Source: Shigella phage vB_SboS_Gloob
DNA: 64,000 nt
Strand: one strand, 5' to 3'
Sequence record: OL615011
The first letter of the stretch is position 1. The number at the start of each line of letters is the position of its first letter. Below, piece by piece: positions 7,400 to 47,859 of the stretch. The translations under genes were made by a program, and so were the position numbers. Below the pieces are notes generated by a model. It ran no database searches, was not told the DNA's origin, and saw nothing but the letters and a program-made list of their open reading frames with translations.

Positions 7400-7432
7400 C
7401 ATAATATACTGCATTTTTCATAAATGTAAACC
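7400..7432 (-). promoter_or_regulatory. sigma70-like early promoter (TTTACA, 16 nt spacer, TATATT)
   Basis: Read on minus strand upstream of CDS 6466-7331. Confidence 0.35.
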
Positions 7433-7508
7433 ACTTTTTATTGAAAAGAAGTTTACACCTTAGTGTTAAACCGCGCCCAGCCAAGCGGAGCGCGAACTTG
7501 CGTGAATA

Positions 7509-9344: not shown

Positions 9345-9352
9345 CTATAAAT
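9345..9352 (+). promoter_or_regulatory. T4-type late promoter TATAAATA
   Basis: Exact TATAAATA 36 nt upstream of GTG start at 9388, with GGAG RBS between. Confidence 0.6.
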
Positions 9353-9387
9353 AACAACAGTTATCTTATTTAAGTGGAGTCCTCACC

Positions 9388-15491: not shown

Positions 15492-15499
15492 CATAAATA
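15492..15499 (+). promoter_or_regulatory. near-consensus late promoter CATAAATA upstream of gp5
   Basis: One mismatch to TATAAATA, 35 nt upstream of gp5 ATG. Confidence 0.3.
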
Positions 15500-15533: not shown

Positions 15534-17141
15534 ATGTTAGACAATATGAGATGGTTTTATGGCACCGTTGAAGATGTCAACGATCCAGACCAAAACGGGC
15601 GCGTCGCCGTCCGCATCTATGGCGTCCACACTGATGACACCGTCCTCCTGCCTACGGATAAACTCCCATGGGCGAAGGTACTGATGCCTGCTTCAAACGC
15701 CTCCTCTGCTGGTTTAGGTTGGTCTCCAACGGGTATCATTCCCGGCACTGAGGTTATGGGGTTCGCCCTTGACGAAGCATACCAGAACCTGCGTATCACT
15801 TGGACTTGGCCTGGGGCAAATCCCACTGATGGGGCAGACACGAATCCACTGGCTCTCGGACAGGTCGTTCAATCGGTAGAACGTCAGGCGTACAACGCCG
15901 TCACTGACGTTCCTGTGAAACAAGAAGACGAACCACAACCAGATCCACAACCACCTGTTGGTGGGTATGATCCTGAAAAATGGATGACCATCGCTCGTGG
16001 TGAGCTGGGTGTCAAGGAGTACGCCGGAAAGTTCAACAACAACCCGCGCATTATAGAATATCACAAGACAACCTCCCTTGGTGCTTCTGAAGATGAAGTG
16101 TCGTGGTGTGCGGCGTTCGTGGGCTGGGTTATGTTGCAGGCTGGATACACGTCTACGCGCTCCGCTCTTGCCCGATCTTACCTTACATGGGGTAGTGCAC
16201 TGTCAGCACCACAATATGGTGCTATCGTAGTCTTCCGGCGCGGTAACAACCCTACATTTGGACACGTGGCGTTTGTACAGAAGTTCGATGCAAACTATGT
16301 CTGGTGTATCGGTGGCAACCAATCCGATTCAGTGAAGGTCAGCCGCTTCAGCCGTTCGTCAGTCCTGGGCTACCGCTGGCCTGGTCCTGCTAACACAGCC
16401 ACAGCCGCGCCTGCGCAGCAGAATGGTAAATGGTCAGAACCTATCCCAGATCGTACTCCAAAGGAACAACCGACTCCGGCTCCTACAGGGCGCGTCCAGG
16501 ATATTGATAACACGGGCGAAACTATGGTTCCGGCAGCGGGTGGCTCCAAGTACCCGTACAACAACGTCATGGCGTCCCGAGCAGGTCACATAATGGAGGT
16601 GGACGACACTCCTGGTGGTGAGCGTCTTCATTGGATGCACATGTCCGGCTCCTACAAACAGATGCTCCCGAACGGCGACGTCGTCAACAAGTCAGTGAAG
16701 GATCATTATGACCTGACCATGTTTGACAAGCGCTATTATGTCGGCGGGGACCACAACCTGACGGTCAAAGGAACTGAAGTTCAGCGCAAGACTGGTGAGG
16801 TCTATCACCTTCACTCCAACAACTACTCAAATGTGGTTGCTGGTACAGCGCTTATGAAGTTCAGCAACCTAGCAGAGATCCAAGCCCAGAATATCCTGCG
16901 CATCATCTGTGAGACTCTGGAAGTTGGTGGAACTCTCAAGGTGCCGAAGATCCTGGCCACTGAGATCATCGCCGACAAACTGTCGGTCGCTCAGACGATT
17001 GATGGCAACATCAAATATGCCGAGGGTGCAGGTCGTGCTTCTTCTCTGTCTGGTGCTACCCCTGCAACCCCATCGGGTCCAGGCGAGATAGATATTAAGG
17101 CAGAATTAAAAGACAATGGTGGTAATTTCGGCACCGAGTAA
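15534..17141 (+). CDS. 5: baseplate hub/cell-puncturing protein gp5 with CHAP/NlpC-P60-type peptidoglycan hydrolase domain
   Basis: 535 aa; N-terminal OB-fold WFYGTVEDVNDPDQNGRVAVRIYGVH as in T4 gp5; central domain with conserved Cys (WCAAFVGW) and His (FGHVAF) instead of a lysozyme domain. Confidence 0.75.
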   Translation: MLDNMRWFYGTVEDVNDPDQNGRVAVRIYGVHTDDTVLLPTDKLPWAKVLMPASNASSAGLGWSPTGIIPGTEVMGFALDEAYQNLRITWTWPGANPTDGADTNPLALGQVVQSVERQAYNAVTDVPVKQEDEPQPDPQPPVGGYDPEKWMTIARGELGVKEYAGKFNNNPRIIEYHKTTSLGASEDEVSWCAAFVGWVMLQAGYTSTRSALARSYLTWGSALSAPQYGAIVVFRRGNNPTFGHVAFVQKFDANYVWCIGGNQSDSVKVSRFSRSSVLGYRWPGPANTATAAPAQQNGKWSEPIPDRTPKEQPTPAPTGRVQDIDNTGETMVPAAGGSKYPYNNVMASRAGHIMEVDDTPGGERLHWMHMSGSYKQMLPNGDVVNKSVKDHYDLTMFDKRYYVGGDHNLTVKGTEVQRKTGEVYHLHSNNYSNVVAGTALMKFSNLAEIQAQNILRIICETLEVGGTLKVPKILATEIIADKLSVAQTIDGNIKYAEGAGRASSLSGATPATPSGPGEIDIKAELKDNGGNFGTE

Positions 17142-23534: not shown

Positions 23535-24347
23535 TTAACTGAAACTCTTGTATGCAGCAGCGAGCTTCGTGTCGTACTGGTTCTTGGCATACGCCGGACC
23601 ATTATAGCGCCGCGCAAACTCAGCCCAGTTCTTGTCCTTCAGAGCCTGCCAGAGCTTGGCGTCGGCCTTGATGAACTTCACGAATGCCATCAGATGGGCG
23701 CGTTCGCCTGTCAAGAAGTCATTGAACATCTCCTTGGCGTTGGCGTACCCACAGACCTGGCAGTTGAAGCCCATGATCTGGAAGAGGCCGTATGAAGCGC
23801 TCTCGTACGCACAATCCTCATCGATGTTGATGGCCGCATGAAGTCTATCCAACTCTGCATCGCCGCCCGTGTACCCGCCTGCCACTGGACTGACAAGGGT
23901 TGGATACATCTGACCAGCAGCATTCGCCCGAGCCTGCCCGAACTTCGCCATCATCTTCTTGTACATGATGTGACGCTCAAACAACGTCTTGATCTTACCA
24001 GACTTGGTGAAGCCAGTGCCACGGGATTCAACCTGATTGACTGCCTTCACAGAGGCGAGGTCAACCCCCAGCTGGTTGGCTGCATCGATAAGGTCAGCCT
24101 CAGTCAGGTGATCCTGATGGGCGTCTCCGGCGTTGCGAATAGCATAGGAGGTCTTTGGACCCACAATACCATCAATGACAAGCCCCGCACCCGCCTGAAC
24201 GGATTTGACAGCGTTCTCTGTTGCCTTACCAAAGATGCCGTCAGCGACGAGGGTGAAGCCGATTTTGTTGAGGCTCTGCTGAAGTGCCTTCACTTCAGTG
24301 CCACGGTTGCCAAGTTTTAGAATGGCCATAAGAAAATACCTCCGCAA
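23535..24347 (-). CDS. endolysin: N-terminal peptidoglycan-binding domain plus N-acetylmuramidase-like catalytic domain
   Basis: PG-binding-like N-terminus; C-terminal LFQIMGFN motif of muramidase family; start possibly MAILKLGN. Confidence 0.7.
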   Translation of the reverse strand: MRRYFLMAILKLGNRGTEVKALQQSLNKIGFTLVADGIFGKATENAVKSVQAGAGLVIDGIVGPKTSYAIRNAGDAHQDHLTEADLIDAANQLGVDLASVKAVNQVESRGTGFTKSGKIKTLFERHIMYKKMMAKFGQARANAAGQMYPTLVSPVAGGYTGGDAELDRLHAAINIDEDCAYESASYGLFQIMGFNCQVCGYANAKEMFNDFLTGERAHLMAFVKFIKADAKLWQALKDKNWAEFARRYNGPAYAKNQYDTKLAAAYKSFS

Positions 24348-24397
24348 TGAATGCGAAGGTATTTAAAGTGAAAGTGAACTACTTGAGGGAGTGTGTA

Positions 24398-25462: not shown

Positions 25463-25596
25463 ATGTAATTCCTCATAATGTAGTTGGTTCGTTTCACTTT
25501 TCATTCGGCGGTGTGTTGCCGCCCTATGTGAACTATAATAGTGCATCATTATTGAAGAGTAAAGTCTTTTTCAATAAATTTTTAAAATAATTTTGA

Positions 25597-30030: not shown

Positions 30031-30038
30031 TATTTATA
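30031..30038 (-). promoter_or_regulatory. T4-type late promoter TATAAATA (minus strand)
   Basis: Plus-strand TATTTATA is TATAAATA on minus strand, about 25 nt upstream of IP gene start at 30005. Confidence 0.55.
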
Positions 30039-39968: not shown

Positions 39969-39976
39969 TATAAATA
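39969..39976 (+). promoter_or_regulatory. T4-type late promoter TATAAATA
   Basis: Exact TATAAATA 27 nt upstream of ATG at 40003, with AGAGGA RBS. Confidence 0.6.
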
Positions 39977-43962: not shown

Positions 43963-44019
43963 GATATAGTCTCTCAAATGAAAAGGGCGACCTTATGATA
44001 AGTCGCCCGAGGTTATTGA

Positions 44020-44928
44020 TTATTGGAAATCACCAACATACATGTTCAGCTTGTCGTCCCAGTTCAGAACAACACGGATCGTTGCGGTATCTTCTGGGAA
44101 GGTCAGTTTGTCACACATGGCGCGATTAACATAAGTCCCACTCTGGTTCACGTTGTAGTCCTTGCCTTGCATGATACCAAAACGCTTGAAGTCGCGTGTC
44201 ACCATCATGTTCAGGGTCGCCCATGGGAGTGATTCACGCAATGCTTTACACAGGATAATCTTTCCATTCGGCCTGAATGATACAAACAACTCATTAGCAA
44301 CCCGGCGGCGGGTGGGTGCCTCGAGTTCACGCAGGGAGATAAATTCAGAGGGATCGTCCAATGCACCCAGGGTGATCATGTCTTCGCGAACTTTATTGAC
44401 AATTTCAGTTACTGCTGACACGACTTCAACTGCCGGATTCGTCTTAAATGGCTCAACAGTCGTGGACATCTTGGATACAGACATCCCGCTGCCGTTGCGC
44501 TTCTCCGCATATTGCTCGACGGACTTGTCACTCACTGGAGGCAGTTTGGTGGCAGGAGTTATGACCGGGCTTGCATCTGGTTTCGCCTTTGGGGTACTCC
44601 GAGCCGCACGCAGCTTTTCCTGGGCTTCCAGAATGCGCTCTTGACGAGAAAGTGGAGCCTTTGGGGTGATCTTCGTACTGAAGTCAGAAACGCCGACCCA
44701 GTCACCCTGGTCATTACGCTTGGCGACCAGAGTCAGTTTGTGGATGATGCCCTGAAGTTTGCTCTCACGCAAGTTGTCGGCATACCAGAACTTCGCACCC
44801 ATCTCGAACTTCTCGGCGAAGATCACGCGAGCGTCTTCGTGTACCAACATAACTTTGGCTGTGTTGGGGGCAAAAGCCTTATTCTTTTCGATAATCGCCG
44901 CAGCGATTGATTTGGTCAGGAGCATCAC
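44020..44928 (-). CDS. hypothetical protein
   Basis: 302 aa ORF. Confidence 0.45.
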   Translation of the reverse strand: MMLLTKSIAAAIIEKNKAFAPNTAKVMLVHEDARVIFAEKFEMGAKFWYADNLRESKLQGIIHKLTLVAKRNDQGDWVGVSDFSTKITPKAPLSRQERILEAQEKLRAARSTPKAKPDASPVITPATKLPPVSDKSVEQYAEKRNGSGMSVSKMSTTVEPFKTNPAVEVVSAVTEIVNKVREDMITLGALDDPSEFISLRELEAPTRRRVANELFVSFRPNGKIILCKALRESLPWATLNMMVTRDFKRFGIMQGKDYNVNQSGTYVNRAMCDKLTFPEDTATIRVVLNWDDKLNMYVGDFQ

Positions 44929-44976: not shown

Positions 44977-45294
44977 TTATTTTTGAAATCCGACAAAGTC
45001 CTGGGCAATCCCCCGACAATACATCAGGTCTTTCTTCGTTTGTGGGCTGTTTTCGGCCGCAGACATCATCATTGGTAGGTCCAGCGCATTCTCTATCTGA
45101 TCAACACTGAACAGATCAAGGCGCTTCAGCTCTCCCTCGAAGTCAGACAGGAGGATAGATGTATCTTTGTCGTCCGGATGGAATTGCTGATACGTCTCCA
45201 TCCAGGCGGCGCAGGTATTCAGTTTAGACGGTGGTGTGGCGTTTACACACCCGGCCATCAGTAACAGCAGGAGTAGGATTTTACCTTTCATCAC
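44977..45294 (-). CDS. outer-membrane lipoprotein (o-spanin-like candidate)
   Basis: Lipobox LLLLLMAGC; 105 aa; start overlaps upstream gene. Confidence 0.45.
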   Translation of the reverse strand: MMKGKILLLLLLMAGCVNATPPSKLNTCAAWMETYQQFHPDDKDTSILLSDFEGELKRLDLFSVDQIENALDLPMMMSAAENSPQTKKDLMYCRGIAQDFVGFQK

Positions 45295-45977
45295 TCGTTC
45301 TCCTTCATCATATTGTCGCAGTCAACACGAGTCTGCTGGAGTTCGCGCGACATGCGAGGATCATCAAGGTTCACGCTCAGATTCGTGGCCAGGTCTTTCA
45401 GGCCGTTCTGAACCCTGTCTTCAAAGTAATAATCGTTCTCCACCAACCATGCCCTGAGGCCAAGAGCGCGAGTGCGCCATTCCTTCTTCAGGGCGCGATC
45501 AGAGGTCTGCGTAGCGCTGTATTCGAATACTTTGATGCACTGATTGCCATCGTTGATGAGGTTCAGGTGACGGCGGCCTATCTGCACACCCTTCTGTAAT
45601 GCCGGAGAAGGGAGAGAACGGCACTGTCTGACTGTCATTCGGCCTTGGGTGCCCATACGCCCAGTCATGATAAGATCGCCAGCCTCCATGCCGCCTCGAT
45701 TAAATTCGTCGTCATTGAGGTAGCCCTTGAGGTTATAGGCTCCCTGTTTGTATCGGTTGAACTCAATCCCAGCATTGACCACAGCAGTGGAGACGTTGCC
45801 CGTGTTCCAGAGTTCAGCAAAGTTCTCTATGGAACCAGACTTGTCGATGGCGACTGCCTGGGAGAACCCAGCACAGTAGGAAAGATCAGACCACAGTTTG
45901 TCACCTGTGGAGTTCAGCTTGGCGGCGGCGGGTAATGCCAGACCAGCCAGCACAACCCCGAGGATTAAACGTTTCAT
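45291..45977 (-). CDS. periplasmic or signal-anchored protein (i-spanin-like candidate)
   Basis: N-terminal hydrophobic segment MKRLILGVVLAGLALPAAA; overlaps lipoprotein gene. Confidence 0.4.
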   Translation of the reverse strand: MKRLILGVVLAGLALPAAAKLNSTGDKLWSDLSYCAGFSQAVAIDKSGSIENFAELWNTGNVSTAVVNAGIEFNRYKQGAYNLKGYLNDDEFNRGGMEAGDLIMTGRMGTQGRMTVRQCRSLPSPALQKGVQIGRRHLNLINDGNQCIKVFEYSATQTSDRALKKEWRTRALGLRAWLVENDYYFEDRVQNGLKDLATNLSVNLDDPRMSRELQQTRVDCDNMMKENE

Positions 45978-46056
45978 GGTGATTCTCCTTATTTCATTGG
46001 ATGAAATGATAGGCGGCTCACCATGTTGAGTAAAGGGTTTCAATAAACTATCGTAT

Positions 46057-46515
46057 TCAGAAGCGAGCGTCAGACACGGTTCTGAACTTCACACCCTTGA
46101 ACTGCTTGGCGACCTTGACGAACTCCATCGCTGGCATGTCCACTTTGTAGACCTTGATGCGCTGTCGGTCATCCATGTTCAGGGCGGCGACATAGCGGTG
46201 TGAGCCGTCGACCACGTAGTTATCAGAAGACACCCAAACCCGACCCATGGGCTTCTTGTTTCTGATGTTCTTCATGATCTTCCAGACCTTCATCTTGTTG
46301 ATTTCGTTCTGGGTGAGACGGAGCGATTTGATAGGAACCTGGCCAGCGTCGATGGTGATGCCGAGTTCCTCCAGGTAGTCATGGAACGCCTGCTGCTTGT
46401 CATCGTCGATCTGTGGCATAGAAGAACGAGAAAGCCCGAGGTTTCCAACAGGAATCCTCAGGCCGTTGATAATGTTCAACCAGTCTATGAAGGAAGACAT
46501 GAACATGAGATTCAC
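46057..46515 (-). CDS. ParB/Srx-fold nuclease-like domain protein
   Basis: Motif VDGSHRYVAA (ParB-like DGxHR). Confidence 0.45.
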   Translation of the reverse strand: MNLMFMSSFIDWLNIINGLRIPVGNLGLSRSSMPQIDDDKQQAFHDYLEELGITIDAGQVPIKSLRLTQNEINKMKVWKIMKNIRNKKPMGRVWVSSDNYVVDGSHRYVAALNMDDRQRIKVYKVDMPAMEFVKVAKQFKGVKFRTVSDARF

Positions 46516-46650: not shown

Positions 46651-46937
46651 CACACCTCGTCTTCTTCAGGTCCACCGTCAATCAGGATGCGAGCGGTGTC
46701 GAAAGTTTCCCCGCCCGTGTTCAGCAGCTTGGTTAGATCGTCAAGATATCGGACCGTGCCAAGATCAGATGACCGCGATATAAACTCCAGCATACCATAC
46801 AACGCTGATTGGAATCGGCCATTGTCGATATGATTCTTGACCTCCATCAGGCGCAAGATGTTCTCTGACTGAGTATGGCCAACACACGCCTTGTCTCTGA
46901 TCATCTCCTTGATAGAACTTCTCTCTGATGGTGTCAT
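46650..46937 (-). CDS. hypothetical protein
   Basis: 95 aa ORF. Confidence 0.4.
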   Translation of the reverse strand: MTPSERSSIKEMIRDKACVGHTQSENILRLMEVKNHIDNGRFQSALYGMLEFISRSSDLGTVRYLDDLTKLLNTGGETFDTARILIDGGPEEDEV

Positions 46938-47308
46938 AACGTACCCCCGACAGAGATCAAGAACTCTTCTTCAATGGTCGTGACCGGGCGGCGGTTGCGG
47001 GTTTCGATCATGAAGCCCCAGCCGCCGTCGGCGACGTTGCCAAAGGTCTTGACGCCAAAGGTCTTCTTCCCGTTGGAGCAGGCATAGAAGTCCAGGATGA
47101 ACGGGCTACCCTGATTGTCGATCCCACGGTTTACGCCGTCCGCTACACAGCGCTCAATCATCTTCCCGTTCTTATACAGAACGAGGTCTTGGCCATACGC
47201 CTTGAAAGCATAAACGCCGCTGGTAGACACTCCGGTGATGACAGGAGGAGCGGAAACAGCAGAGAAGGAAGCGCCCAGCAGGGCAACAGCGAGGATTAAC
47301 TTTTTCAT
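46934..47308 (-). CDS. secreted protein with signal peptide
   Basis: MKKLILAVALLGASFSAVSA signal peptide. Confidence 0.45.
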   Translation of the reverse strand: MKKLILAVALLGASFSAVSAPPVITGVSTSGVYAFKAYGQDLVLYKNGKMIERCVADGVNRGIDNQGSPFILDFYACSNGKKTFGVKTFGNVADGGWGFMIETRNRRPVTTIEEEFLISVGGTL

Positions 47309-47791: not shown

Positions 47792-47859
47792 CTCAATCTG
47801 GTGAACCCCATCGTTCGCCAGTTATTGAATAATAGGATATTCCTTAGAGGAAGTAAACC

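Follow-up and report, generated by a model that had tools for sequence, protein, structure and literature searches.

The subject of this report is a pair of overlapping genes at positions 44,977 to 45,977 of the DNA of Shigella phage vB_SboS_Gloob (sequence record OL615011), within the stretch of 64,000 nucleotides that was analysed as a whole and is referred to below as the window. The best explanation overall, held tentatively and with a probability of about 0.4, was that the two genes encode a coupled periplasmic pair that would guard the envelope of the infected cell, and not a spanin. The original prediction, made from this DNA, had proposed an i-spanin/o-spanin pair and had added a superinfection-exclusion or periplasmic role as a hedge. 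The anatomy that it described stood, the spanin half was not supported, and the hedge proved to be the better-supported half.

The window is a segment of an Ackermannviridae genome of the genus Agtrevirus, from a ViI-like phage of Shigella/Salmonella. Between 44000 and 47500 its identity was 97% to Shigella phages MK-13 and Ag3 and 96% to ChubbyThor, in which the gene order from about 61.5 to 125.5 kb is colinear with the window. Both genes of the pair are on the minus strand, which had been left out of the original prediction, and comprise the following features:

45291..45977, minus strand: gene of the 228-amino-acid (aa) exported protein (phrog_4260), with an ATG start and a TGA stop
45977-45921, minus strand: predicted signal peptide of the 228-aa protein, residues 1-19, with predicted cleavage AAA|KLN from the (-3,-1) rule
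45985..45990, minus strand: Shine-Dalgarno sequence AAGGAG of the 228-aa gene
44977..45294, minus strand: gene of the 104/105-aa exported protein (phrog_3843, named 'Rz-like spanin'), with an ATG or a GTG start
45300..45305, minus strand: Shine-Dalgarno sequence AAGGAG that serves the downstream gene and lies within the 3' end of the 228-aa gene, as in translational coupling

The downstream gene ends at 44977 and starts either at ATG 45291, giving 104 aa, or at GTG 45294, giving 105 aa. The overlap with the 228-aa gene is 1 nucleotide (nt) from the ATG and 4 nt from the GTG, so that the 4-nt overlap and 105-aa product first described are right with the GTG start. Among the 31 related loci compared, the two genes were adjacent and overlapped by 1 or 4 nt in every one, down to about 30% identity and including the loci where the upstream protein has 123-176 aa; the orthologue junctions read ATGA (4 nt) or TGATG/TAATG (1 nt). 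Because of this conservation, of strong PHROG matches (phrog_4260, E = 6.5e-155; phrog_3843, E = 2.2e-54) and of the presence of the exact sequences of both proteins in public records, both genes are real and not chance open reading frames (ORFs).

The 228-aa protein carries the N-terminal hydrophobic segment that had been noticed (MKRLILGVVLAGLALPAAA|KLNST). A small-x-small motif is the mark of a signal-peptidase-I substrate (von Heijne -3/-1 rule), and the calls of signal peptide versus anchor were made here by sequence rules, with the cleavage site taken from the (-3,-1) rule. Twenty-five distinct N-termini of the upstream family were compared, drawn from Kuttervirus, Agtrevirus, Taipeivirus-type and Miltonvirus phages and from metagenomic Ackermannviridae-like contigs, with identities down to about 23-36%. 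All of them have an uncharged stretch of 11-17 residues and a small-x-small end followed by a charged or polar residue, the cleavage-type motifs being AAA|K, ASA|K, ATA|K, AHA|G, AWS|E, ASA|A, ANA|G, AHA|T, ANA|E, AVA|Q, and AQA|R. Lambda Rz, whose N-terminus agrees with that listed for mEp043 Rz, has 20 uncharged residues and no small-x-small site. With its short uncharged stretch and its small-x-small site, the upstream N-terminus reads by the -3/-1 rule as a Sec signal peptide of the cleavable type, and not as a type II anchor, in all lineages; the retained transmembrane domain of an i-spanin, a type II inner-membrane protein, was recognised in none of the 25.

Cleavage of this peptide would leave a soluble periplasmic protein of about 209 aa, with a predicted pI of 6.8 and four conserved Cys (C35, C119, C147, and C220). 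C35 and C147 are invariant, and C119 and C220 occur in at least 90% of the aligned sequences of the family; the protein had therefore rightly been described as exceeding typical i-spanins in size and Cys content. In Miltonvirus-type phages the upstream ('i-spanin') protein is a 126-aa stub, and the short homologues of these phages (123-176 aa) retain just the N-terminal domain with the C35/C147 pair, which suggests domain-internal disulfides.

The downstream protein begins MKGKILLLLLLMAGC|VN and is the sole credible lipobox ORF of the window. The predicted lipobox is present: LMAGC, with Cys15 (codon 45249-45247) and Val at +2, passed the two tests applied, a strict lipobox pattern and a rule of the PROSITE PS51257 type. 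A signal-peptidase-I site, VNA|TP, is also found as an alternative. Among 56 distinct N-termini of the small-protein family, the PROSITE-type rule recognised a lipobox in 11, eight of which form an LMAGC/LIAGC/LIVGC clade of Agtrevirus and Marshall/Maynard-type Kuttervirus. The small proteins without a lipobox have signal-peptidase-I-type sites directly ahead of the conserved mature start (VHA|APPSKLN, VLA|APASKLN, ALA|VPANNLN, AQA|AGQ, VLA|TPNKLN, and ARA|DE), and such signals are those of all Miltonvirus-type loci, the distant metagenomic loci (one of them ambiguous), and most Kuttervirus/Taipeivirus-type loci. Furthermore, a natural Cys-to-Ser variant (P0032), 97% identical to the small protein of the window, reads LLLMAGS and not LLLMAGC. 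Since most orthologues have no lipobox, the lipid anchor would be dispensable and, judged from these N-termini, cannot be essential to the function of the family.

In the AlphaFold2 model of the small protein, residues 23-102 form a compact bundle of helices, at pLDDT above 90. The protein is acidic (pI 4.5) and contains 5.6% Pro, versus 24% in Rz1. The two invariant Cys of its mature domain (C27 and C92) are located in the first and the last helix. The even numbers of Cys, their domain-wise retention, and the helix positions in the model suggest intramolecular periplasmic disulfides in both proteins; in a spanin, periplasmic Cys would serve intermolecular disulfides between the partners of a homodimer. 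The C-terminus (...CRGIAQDFVGFQK) has no hydrophobic segment, which sets the protein apart from unimolecular spanins of the T1 gp11 type.

With the anatomy of both proteins in hand, the pair was compared with two-component spanins (lambda Rz/Rz1, T4 PseT.3/PseT.2, and the 'separated' class of SpaninDB). The shared features are the adjacent overlapping genes, the hydrophobic N-terminus of the first product, a good lipobox in this phage whose +2 residue (Val) is not Asp, and periplasmic Cys, of which four are conserved in the large protein and two in the small mature domain. The pair also lies away from the endolysin, as had been observed, the distance being about 21 kb, and the T4 pair is likewise unlinked to its endolysin. 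These features, together with the Marshall pair in SpaninDB and the PHROG and UniProt labels, speak for a genuine two-component spanin as in the Marshall annotation, with an uncleaved anchor and an outer-membrane (OM) lipoprotein whose complex would fuse the two membranes at lysis, at least in the lipobox clade. Nevertheless, two-component spanins have a transmembrane domain of about 20 residues where this family has a cleavable-type signal peptide in all lineages, and a Pro-rich extended small chain where this family has a globular acidic helical bundle. Of the 56 small-protein variants 45 lack the lipobox, including all distant lineages bar one ambiguous case, and the Cys-to-Ser variant and the 126-aa upstream stub count against a spanin as well. 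Neither the coiled-coil i-spanin domain nor the short Pro-rich o-spanin, which are typical of spanins though not universal, was recognised, the coiled coil being judged on the Marshall orthologue; the 21 kb to the endolysin come without a nearby T4-type late motif. No homology to an experimentally tested spanin was detected by Pfam or NCBIfam, the word spanin coming from PHROG and UniProt names only, and the literature searched held no experimental report of a lysis requirement or of lambda Rz/Rz1 complementation. On these comparisons the pair is very probably not a canonical spanin, and only a very slim chance is left to a genuine one.

The spanin interpretation is understandable and not new, and it fails on the defining features, as read from sequence, once orthologues are compared. 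In addition to the PHROG name, 'Rz-like spanin' recurs in RefSeq on the small gene of MK-13, Ag3, Maynard, and others, many orthologues of the large protein bear the name 'I-spanin' in UniProt, which also holds 'I-/O-spanin' names, and the ChubbyThor annotation gives 'putative i-spanin/o-spanin'. The 'putative i-spanin' coding sequence of ChubbyThor (L001 4292-5894) uses an upstream start that gives 261 aa and buries the signal peptide; a NUMOD3 homing-endonuclease gene stands between it and the ParB-like gene, an insertion absent from the window.

The earliest curated spanin record found was the SpaninDB entry for Salmonella phage Marshall, NC_022772 (Kongari et al. 2018, Table S1; PMC6139136), the sole entry, in the part of that table that was searched, among the Ackermannviridae names looked up. 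According to its row, the entry is of class 'separated', each of the two proteins forms a singleton family, the periplasmic parts together reach about 300 residues, the longest such length in SpaninDB, and the curator flagged it with 'too long... taking his word'; it is an annotation and not an experiment (PMC6139136). The Marshall pair belongs to the family described here: the row gives a 228-aa protein with few differences from that of the window, a small protein in a 108-aa LIAGC form, a -1 junction, and the same Shine-Dalgarno sequences as in the window. The Jpred values in the same row are 35% helix and 12% strand for the large protein, with 56% helix for its small partner. A missing coiled coil had been named beforehand as refuting the i-spanin claim, and for the near-identical large Marshall protein the row records 0 coiled coils by Pepcoil. 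With the signal peptide found in all lineages, the lipobox missing in most orthologues and this doubtful SpaninDB entry, the claim of an i-spanin/o-spanin pair was not supported. The 'TMHMM Found Periplasm = FALSE' value of the row was dropped as evidence because bona fide Rz rows share it. The Marshall genome announcement originated in an undergraduate course and gives no lysis evidence.

Table 10 of Kongari et al. lists as spanin-less Maynard, Vi01, SFP10, SJ2, SJ3, CBA120, ECML-4, PhaxI, phiSboM-AG3, and Dickeya RC-2014 (PMC6139136). All ten carry this protein family. AG3 has the same LMAGC lipobox as the window and Maynard is also lipobox-bearing, and both were counted as spanin-less by the authors whose table contains the Marshall entry (PMC6139136). 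The Texas A&M annotation of the small protein of Maynard reads only 'conserved hypothetical lipoprotein', and in S118 and bering the large protein is labelled i-spanin beside a small protein without a lipobox. The spanin label on the family is probably wrong.

The distribution of the pair was then considered. A HMMER search of 1.84 billion representative proteins gave 10 matches; the full-length ones on contigs that were inspected lay in Ackermannviridae-type genomic contexts, and a profile search for relatives returned Ackermannviridae-type contigs alone. None of the 185,579 genomes of bacteria and archaea that were scanned contained a relative, and both proteins, scanned together with their neighbours against Pfam, NCBIfam, and PADLOC, gave no match. 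The profile search against the PDB returned nothing for the large protein and only chance Rab1A matches (E ~0.4) for the small one. Foldseek found no PDB match with E<1 for the small protein (TM<=0.30) and, in BFVD, the orthologue of Erwinia phage phiEa2809 alone. The Foldseek matches of the 228-aa model were discarded as meaningless, given its pLDDT of 45. In the searches made the family is phage-only, and the mature parts of both proteins are strongly conserved. In all 31 loci, even at about 30% identity, the pair is set in a conserved neighbourhood of a vWFA protein, an acyl carrier protein, a ParB-like 150-aa protein, the pair itself, an HU-like protein, and a helicase.

These observations would also fit another periplasmic role directed at a host target, such as the inhibition of a protease, a peptidoglycan enzyme, or an envelope-stress sensor, or an anti-defence function. 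An exported, apparently disulfide-bonded, phage-only pair with strongly conserved mature parts, placed in an early-region neighbourhood with other host-takeover genes, is what such a role would lead one to expect; against it, the PADLOC, Pfam, NCBIfam, and PDB searches offered no match and there is no positive evidence. Such a role is possible, on the unlikely side.

The reading preferred here is that of a translationally coupled, Sec-exported and disulfide-stabilised periplasmic pair specific to Ackermannviridae, and not of a membrane-spanning spanin. The small protein would be exported and form an acidic, compact bundle of helices of 80-90 aa, soluble in most relatives; in Agtrevirus and Marshall/Maynard-type Kuttervirus the lipobox may have been gained secondarily, and the protein is probably tethered there to the outer membrane. 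From their 1:1 coupled synthesis and strict co-conservation we infer that the two proteins form a heterodimer, a periplasmic complex that would be transcribed from its own sigma-70-type promoter and act on the infected cell's envelope, beginning in early or middle infection. The envelope may in this way be protected or controlled against secondary phage attack, for example by blocking the tail lysozyme or the transit of DNA, and against lysis from without. Superinfection exclusion or an envelope guard is the function favoured, at somewhat less than even odds, because of the export signals, the sigma-70 promoter, the exported and host-interaction neighbours, and a conserved target that the phages themselves would provide, the gp5-like tail lysozyme of the family.

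Two known systems offer a parallel. T4 Spackle (Sp, gp61.3) is a small, helical, disulfide-containing periplasmic protein, of early type and Sec-exported, and Imm is the other superinfection-exclusion protein. The likeness to the T4 system consists of an exported small helical protein of disulfide and early type in T4-related phages that carry a gp5-like tail lysozyme. The differences are that two co-translated proteins are found here and that neither the profile search (E<=10) nor Foldseek (best TM-score 0.30) matched any PDB chain, Spackle presumably being among the structures searched. The MliC/PliC lysozyme inhibitors are a single family with both lipoprotein and soluble periplasmic forms. 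As in the small protein, their mature domain is either lipid-anchored or free and the anchor is not essential to activity; they are bacterial beta-sandwich proteins, in contrast to the phage helical bundle, and no homology was detected by Pfam/NCBIfam, PDB, or Foldseek searches.

The transcription signals that bear on the timing of expression, and the gene that follows the pair, are as follows:

46006..46034, minus strand: putative promoter of the pair, a promoter-like site of sigma-70 type (TTTACT-N17-TATCAT) directly upstream of it
46038..46047, minus strand: A/T-rich element TTTATTGAAA, upstream of the promoter-like site
44020..44928, minus strand: gene of a 302-aa protein (phrog_3828), 48 nt downstream of the pair, with no hydrophobic N-terminal segment or export signal
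43985..44008, minus strand: intrinsic-terminator-like hairpin with a 9-bp stem (6 G-C pairs) and a T-run, the end of the probable transcription unit
9346-9353 (plus strand), 30031-30038 (minus strand), and 39969-39976 (plus strand): exact T4-type late-promoter motifs TATAAATA
15492-15499, plus strand: late motif with one mismatch, CATAAATA, directly upstream of the gp5-like hub/tail-lysozyme gene (15534..17141)
24360-24367, minus strand: late motif with one mismatch, TTTAAATA, about 13 nt ahead of the endolysin ORF

The element TTTATTGAAA has three exact copies in the window (7437 inverted, 25569, and 46038), each just upstream of TTTAC(T/A)-N17-TATNAT. The strict promoter pattern occurs three times, against 0.02 expected, always on the minus strand and between genes, and a fourth site has TTTACA. 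The members of the class (7401-7446, 25535-25578, 46006-46047, and 47829-47857, minus strand) are built from TTTATTGAAA, 3-5 nt, TTTAC(T/A), N17, and TAT.AT, and all of them lie between genes and point leftward. This repeated class resembles T4 early promoters. Kuttervirus, Agtrevirus, and Taipeivirus-type loci share the promoter-like site of the pair. In the original papers on AG3 and CBA120, eight sigma-70-type promoters each were reported and no more. A 7-bp inverted repeat, ATTTCAT-CCA-ATGAAAT (45991-46007, minus strand), lies between the -10 hexamer and the Shine-Dalgarno sequence of the 228-aa gene. Both of its arms are intact in the clade of the window, other Kuttervirus-type loci have a 5' arm ATTTTAT (T for C) and keep the ATGAAAT arm, and in Taipeivirus-type loci the region is replaced.

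The exact late motifs TATAAATA number three, against 0.5 expected, and stand ahead of late-type genes; late-promoter motifs were also found directly upstream of baseplate genes. No TATAAATA-like motif, with one mismatch allowed, is present on the minus strand between 33,000 and 61,314. These motifs weakly suggest a non-late expression of the pair, the argument being weak because one-mismatch motifs occur at chance frequency overall and because the early-type promoter class also heads the cluster of the endolysin. For this last reason the promoter type was rejected as a ground for excluding a lysis role. The literature searched for Ackermannviridae transcriptomes or lysis genetics gave nothing usable.

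An early-type promoter would also suit a module of lysis inhibition, in which the pair would be a periplasmic sensor or antiholin that, like T4 RI, binds the periplasmic face of a putative holin and delays lysis on superinfection. CBA120 shows a T4-like lysis delay dependent on the multiplicity of infection (lysis inhibition) and larger bursts, while neither a holin nor an antiholin has been identified in it (PMC3184105). The pair, reported as core in the family (PMC10892097), is exported, and the small protein, a secreted helical domain, is RI-like in size; RI itself is small, secreted, periplasmic, helical, and early. The PDB structures of RI-T, on the other hand, show no sequence or fold similarity to it, RI acts alone where two proteins are found here, and the pair has no physical or genetic link to a holin; no T-type holin is known in the family, in which the partner holin was not searched for systematically. 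Lysis inhibition is unlikely in absolute terms and is nonetheless a close second to the envelope guard.

The promoter class shared with the endolysin-containing cluster bears as well on a non-canonical disruption of the outer membrane, in which the complex would accumulate and attack or destabilise this membrane after the endolysin has removed the peptidoglycan, in place of the spanins that these phages lack and with no bridging of both membranes. Unlike cationic membrane-active peptides such as phiKT gp28, the small protein is acidic and its large partner neutral, and no amphipathic or hydrophobic membrane-active segment was predicted in either protein beyond the signal. No late promoter was found for the pair, and the early export of an OM-damaging agent would be harmful. 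In favour of this possibility are the ten spanin-less Ackermannviridae and the other topologies allowed by Kongari et al. (PMC6139136), the core status of the pair (PMC10892097), and the probable OM tether of the small protein in the clade of the window. It is improbable on balance. Taken in a broader form, the pair may be an envelope-control device of the 'spanin-less' Ackermannviridae, a soluble two-protein complex of the periplasm with an optional lipid tether, acting through superinfection-sensing lysis inhibition or through non-bridging OM disruption, with a fold absent from the PDB; this too is rather unlikely.

Several points weigh against the envelope guard. The small protein has no sequence or fold similarity to T4 Spackle, to RI, or to any solved structure in the PDB profile and Foldseek searches, so that the functional analogy to T4 is one of context. 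As the case of T4 RI shows, what is predicted as a signal peptide can instead be an uncleaved signal-anchor-release domain, and the cleavage of the 228-aa protein is a call of the (-3,-1) rule. The AlphaFold2 model of that protein, built on a shallow alignment, is poor (pLDDT 45), helices 140-190 alone reaching 70-85. The promoter class of the pair is the same that heads the cluster ending in the endolysin. Superinfection-exclusion genes are usually patchy accessory genes, and this pair is given as a core part of the family's genomes (PMC10892097 Table 5). Furthermore, these phages have no other recognised spanin (PMC6139136), by which, through elimination, the pair stays a candidate for some step of lysis.

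Regarding the neighbouring genes, the 302-aa gene is probably co-transcribed with the pair. It is not part of the conserved unit, since its homologue in Serratia phage 3M lies several genes from the pair, and the idea that it corresponds to the Band_7 protein of distant relatives was tested and discarded, the two being unrelated and the 302-aa protein matching that other 3M gene. In the distant relatives L004, L031, and L032 and in Serratia phage 3M (L006/L007), a Band_7/SPFH gene is found 1-4 genes after the pair; in 3M and L031 a P22 gp17-like gene (PF17420) follows, and 3M also has a Lar-like gene, none of which is present in the lineage of the window. The gene directly upstream of the pair (46057..46515, minus strand, 152 aa) matched phrog_2859 (E = 2.8e-45) and, weakly, the ParB-like phrog_1033 (E = 1.7e-4); a gene of similar size (149-155 aa) occupies its position in six of the six relatives whose gene tables were inspected. 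A third signal-peptide protein is encoded two genes upstream of the pair (46934..47308, minus strand), with 124 aa and the N-terminus MKKLILAVALLGASFSAVSA|PPVITG; it is Gly-rich with 2 Cys, belongs to phrog_5474, and is a 'membrane protein' in RefSeq. The early region of the pair thus encodes a small cluster of periplasm-targeted proteins.

The endolysin (23535..24347, minus strand, about 21 kb from the pair) combines a PG_binding-like N-terminus with a muramidase-type C-terminus. No transmembrane protein was found among its immediate neighbours, where no holin is therefore evident. A six-frame lipobox scan of ChubbyThor, the nearest relative with a full annotation, gave two further lipobox-bearing annotated ORFs, gp22 (L033 21489..21830, plus strand; 113 aa, LAFSTTAC|S, with a Cys-rich mature part) and gp179 (L035, record 129858..130499, plus strand; 213 aa, LLLTSC|R, adjoining a tail-completion gene). 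Neither has an adjacent gene for a type II membrane protein or a C-terminal transmembrane domain.

Altogether, the case is one of documented annotation drift and of a sharply defined, family-specific periplasmic pair. The 'spanin' label has spread through PHROGs, RefSeq, and UniProt, and the earliest curated record found for it is the single unverified student-annotation entry; the lysis-gene counts of therapeutic Salmonella, E. coli, and Klebsiella phages inherit the label error. Ackermannviridae are widely used biocontrol phages, in which no holin, antiholin, or OM-disruption step has been assigned. If the pair is not a spanin, they remain a genuine spanin-less case, and this family-wide, phage-only, co-translated pair, for which no structural relative was found, would then be among the few concrete candidates to which lysis inhibition or superinfection exclusion could be traced in these phages. 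Were it to act as a device of lysis inhibition or OM disruption, it would represent a new class of lysis or lysis-control protein.

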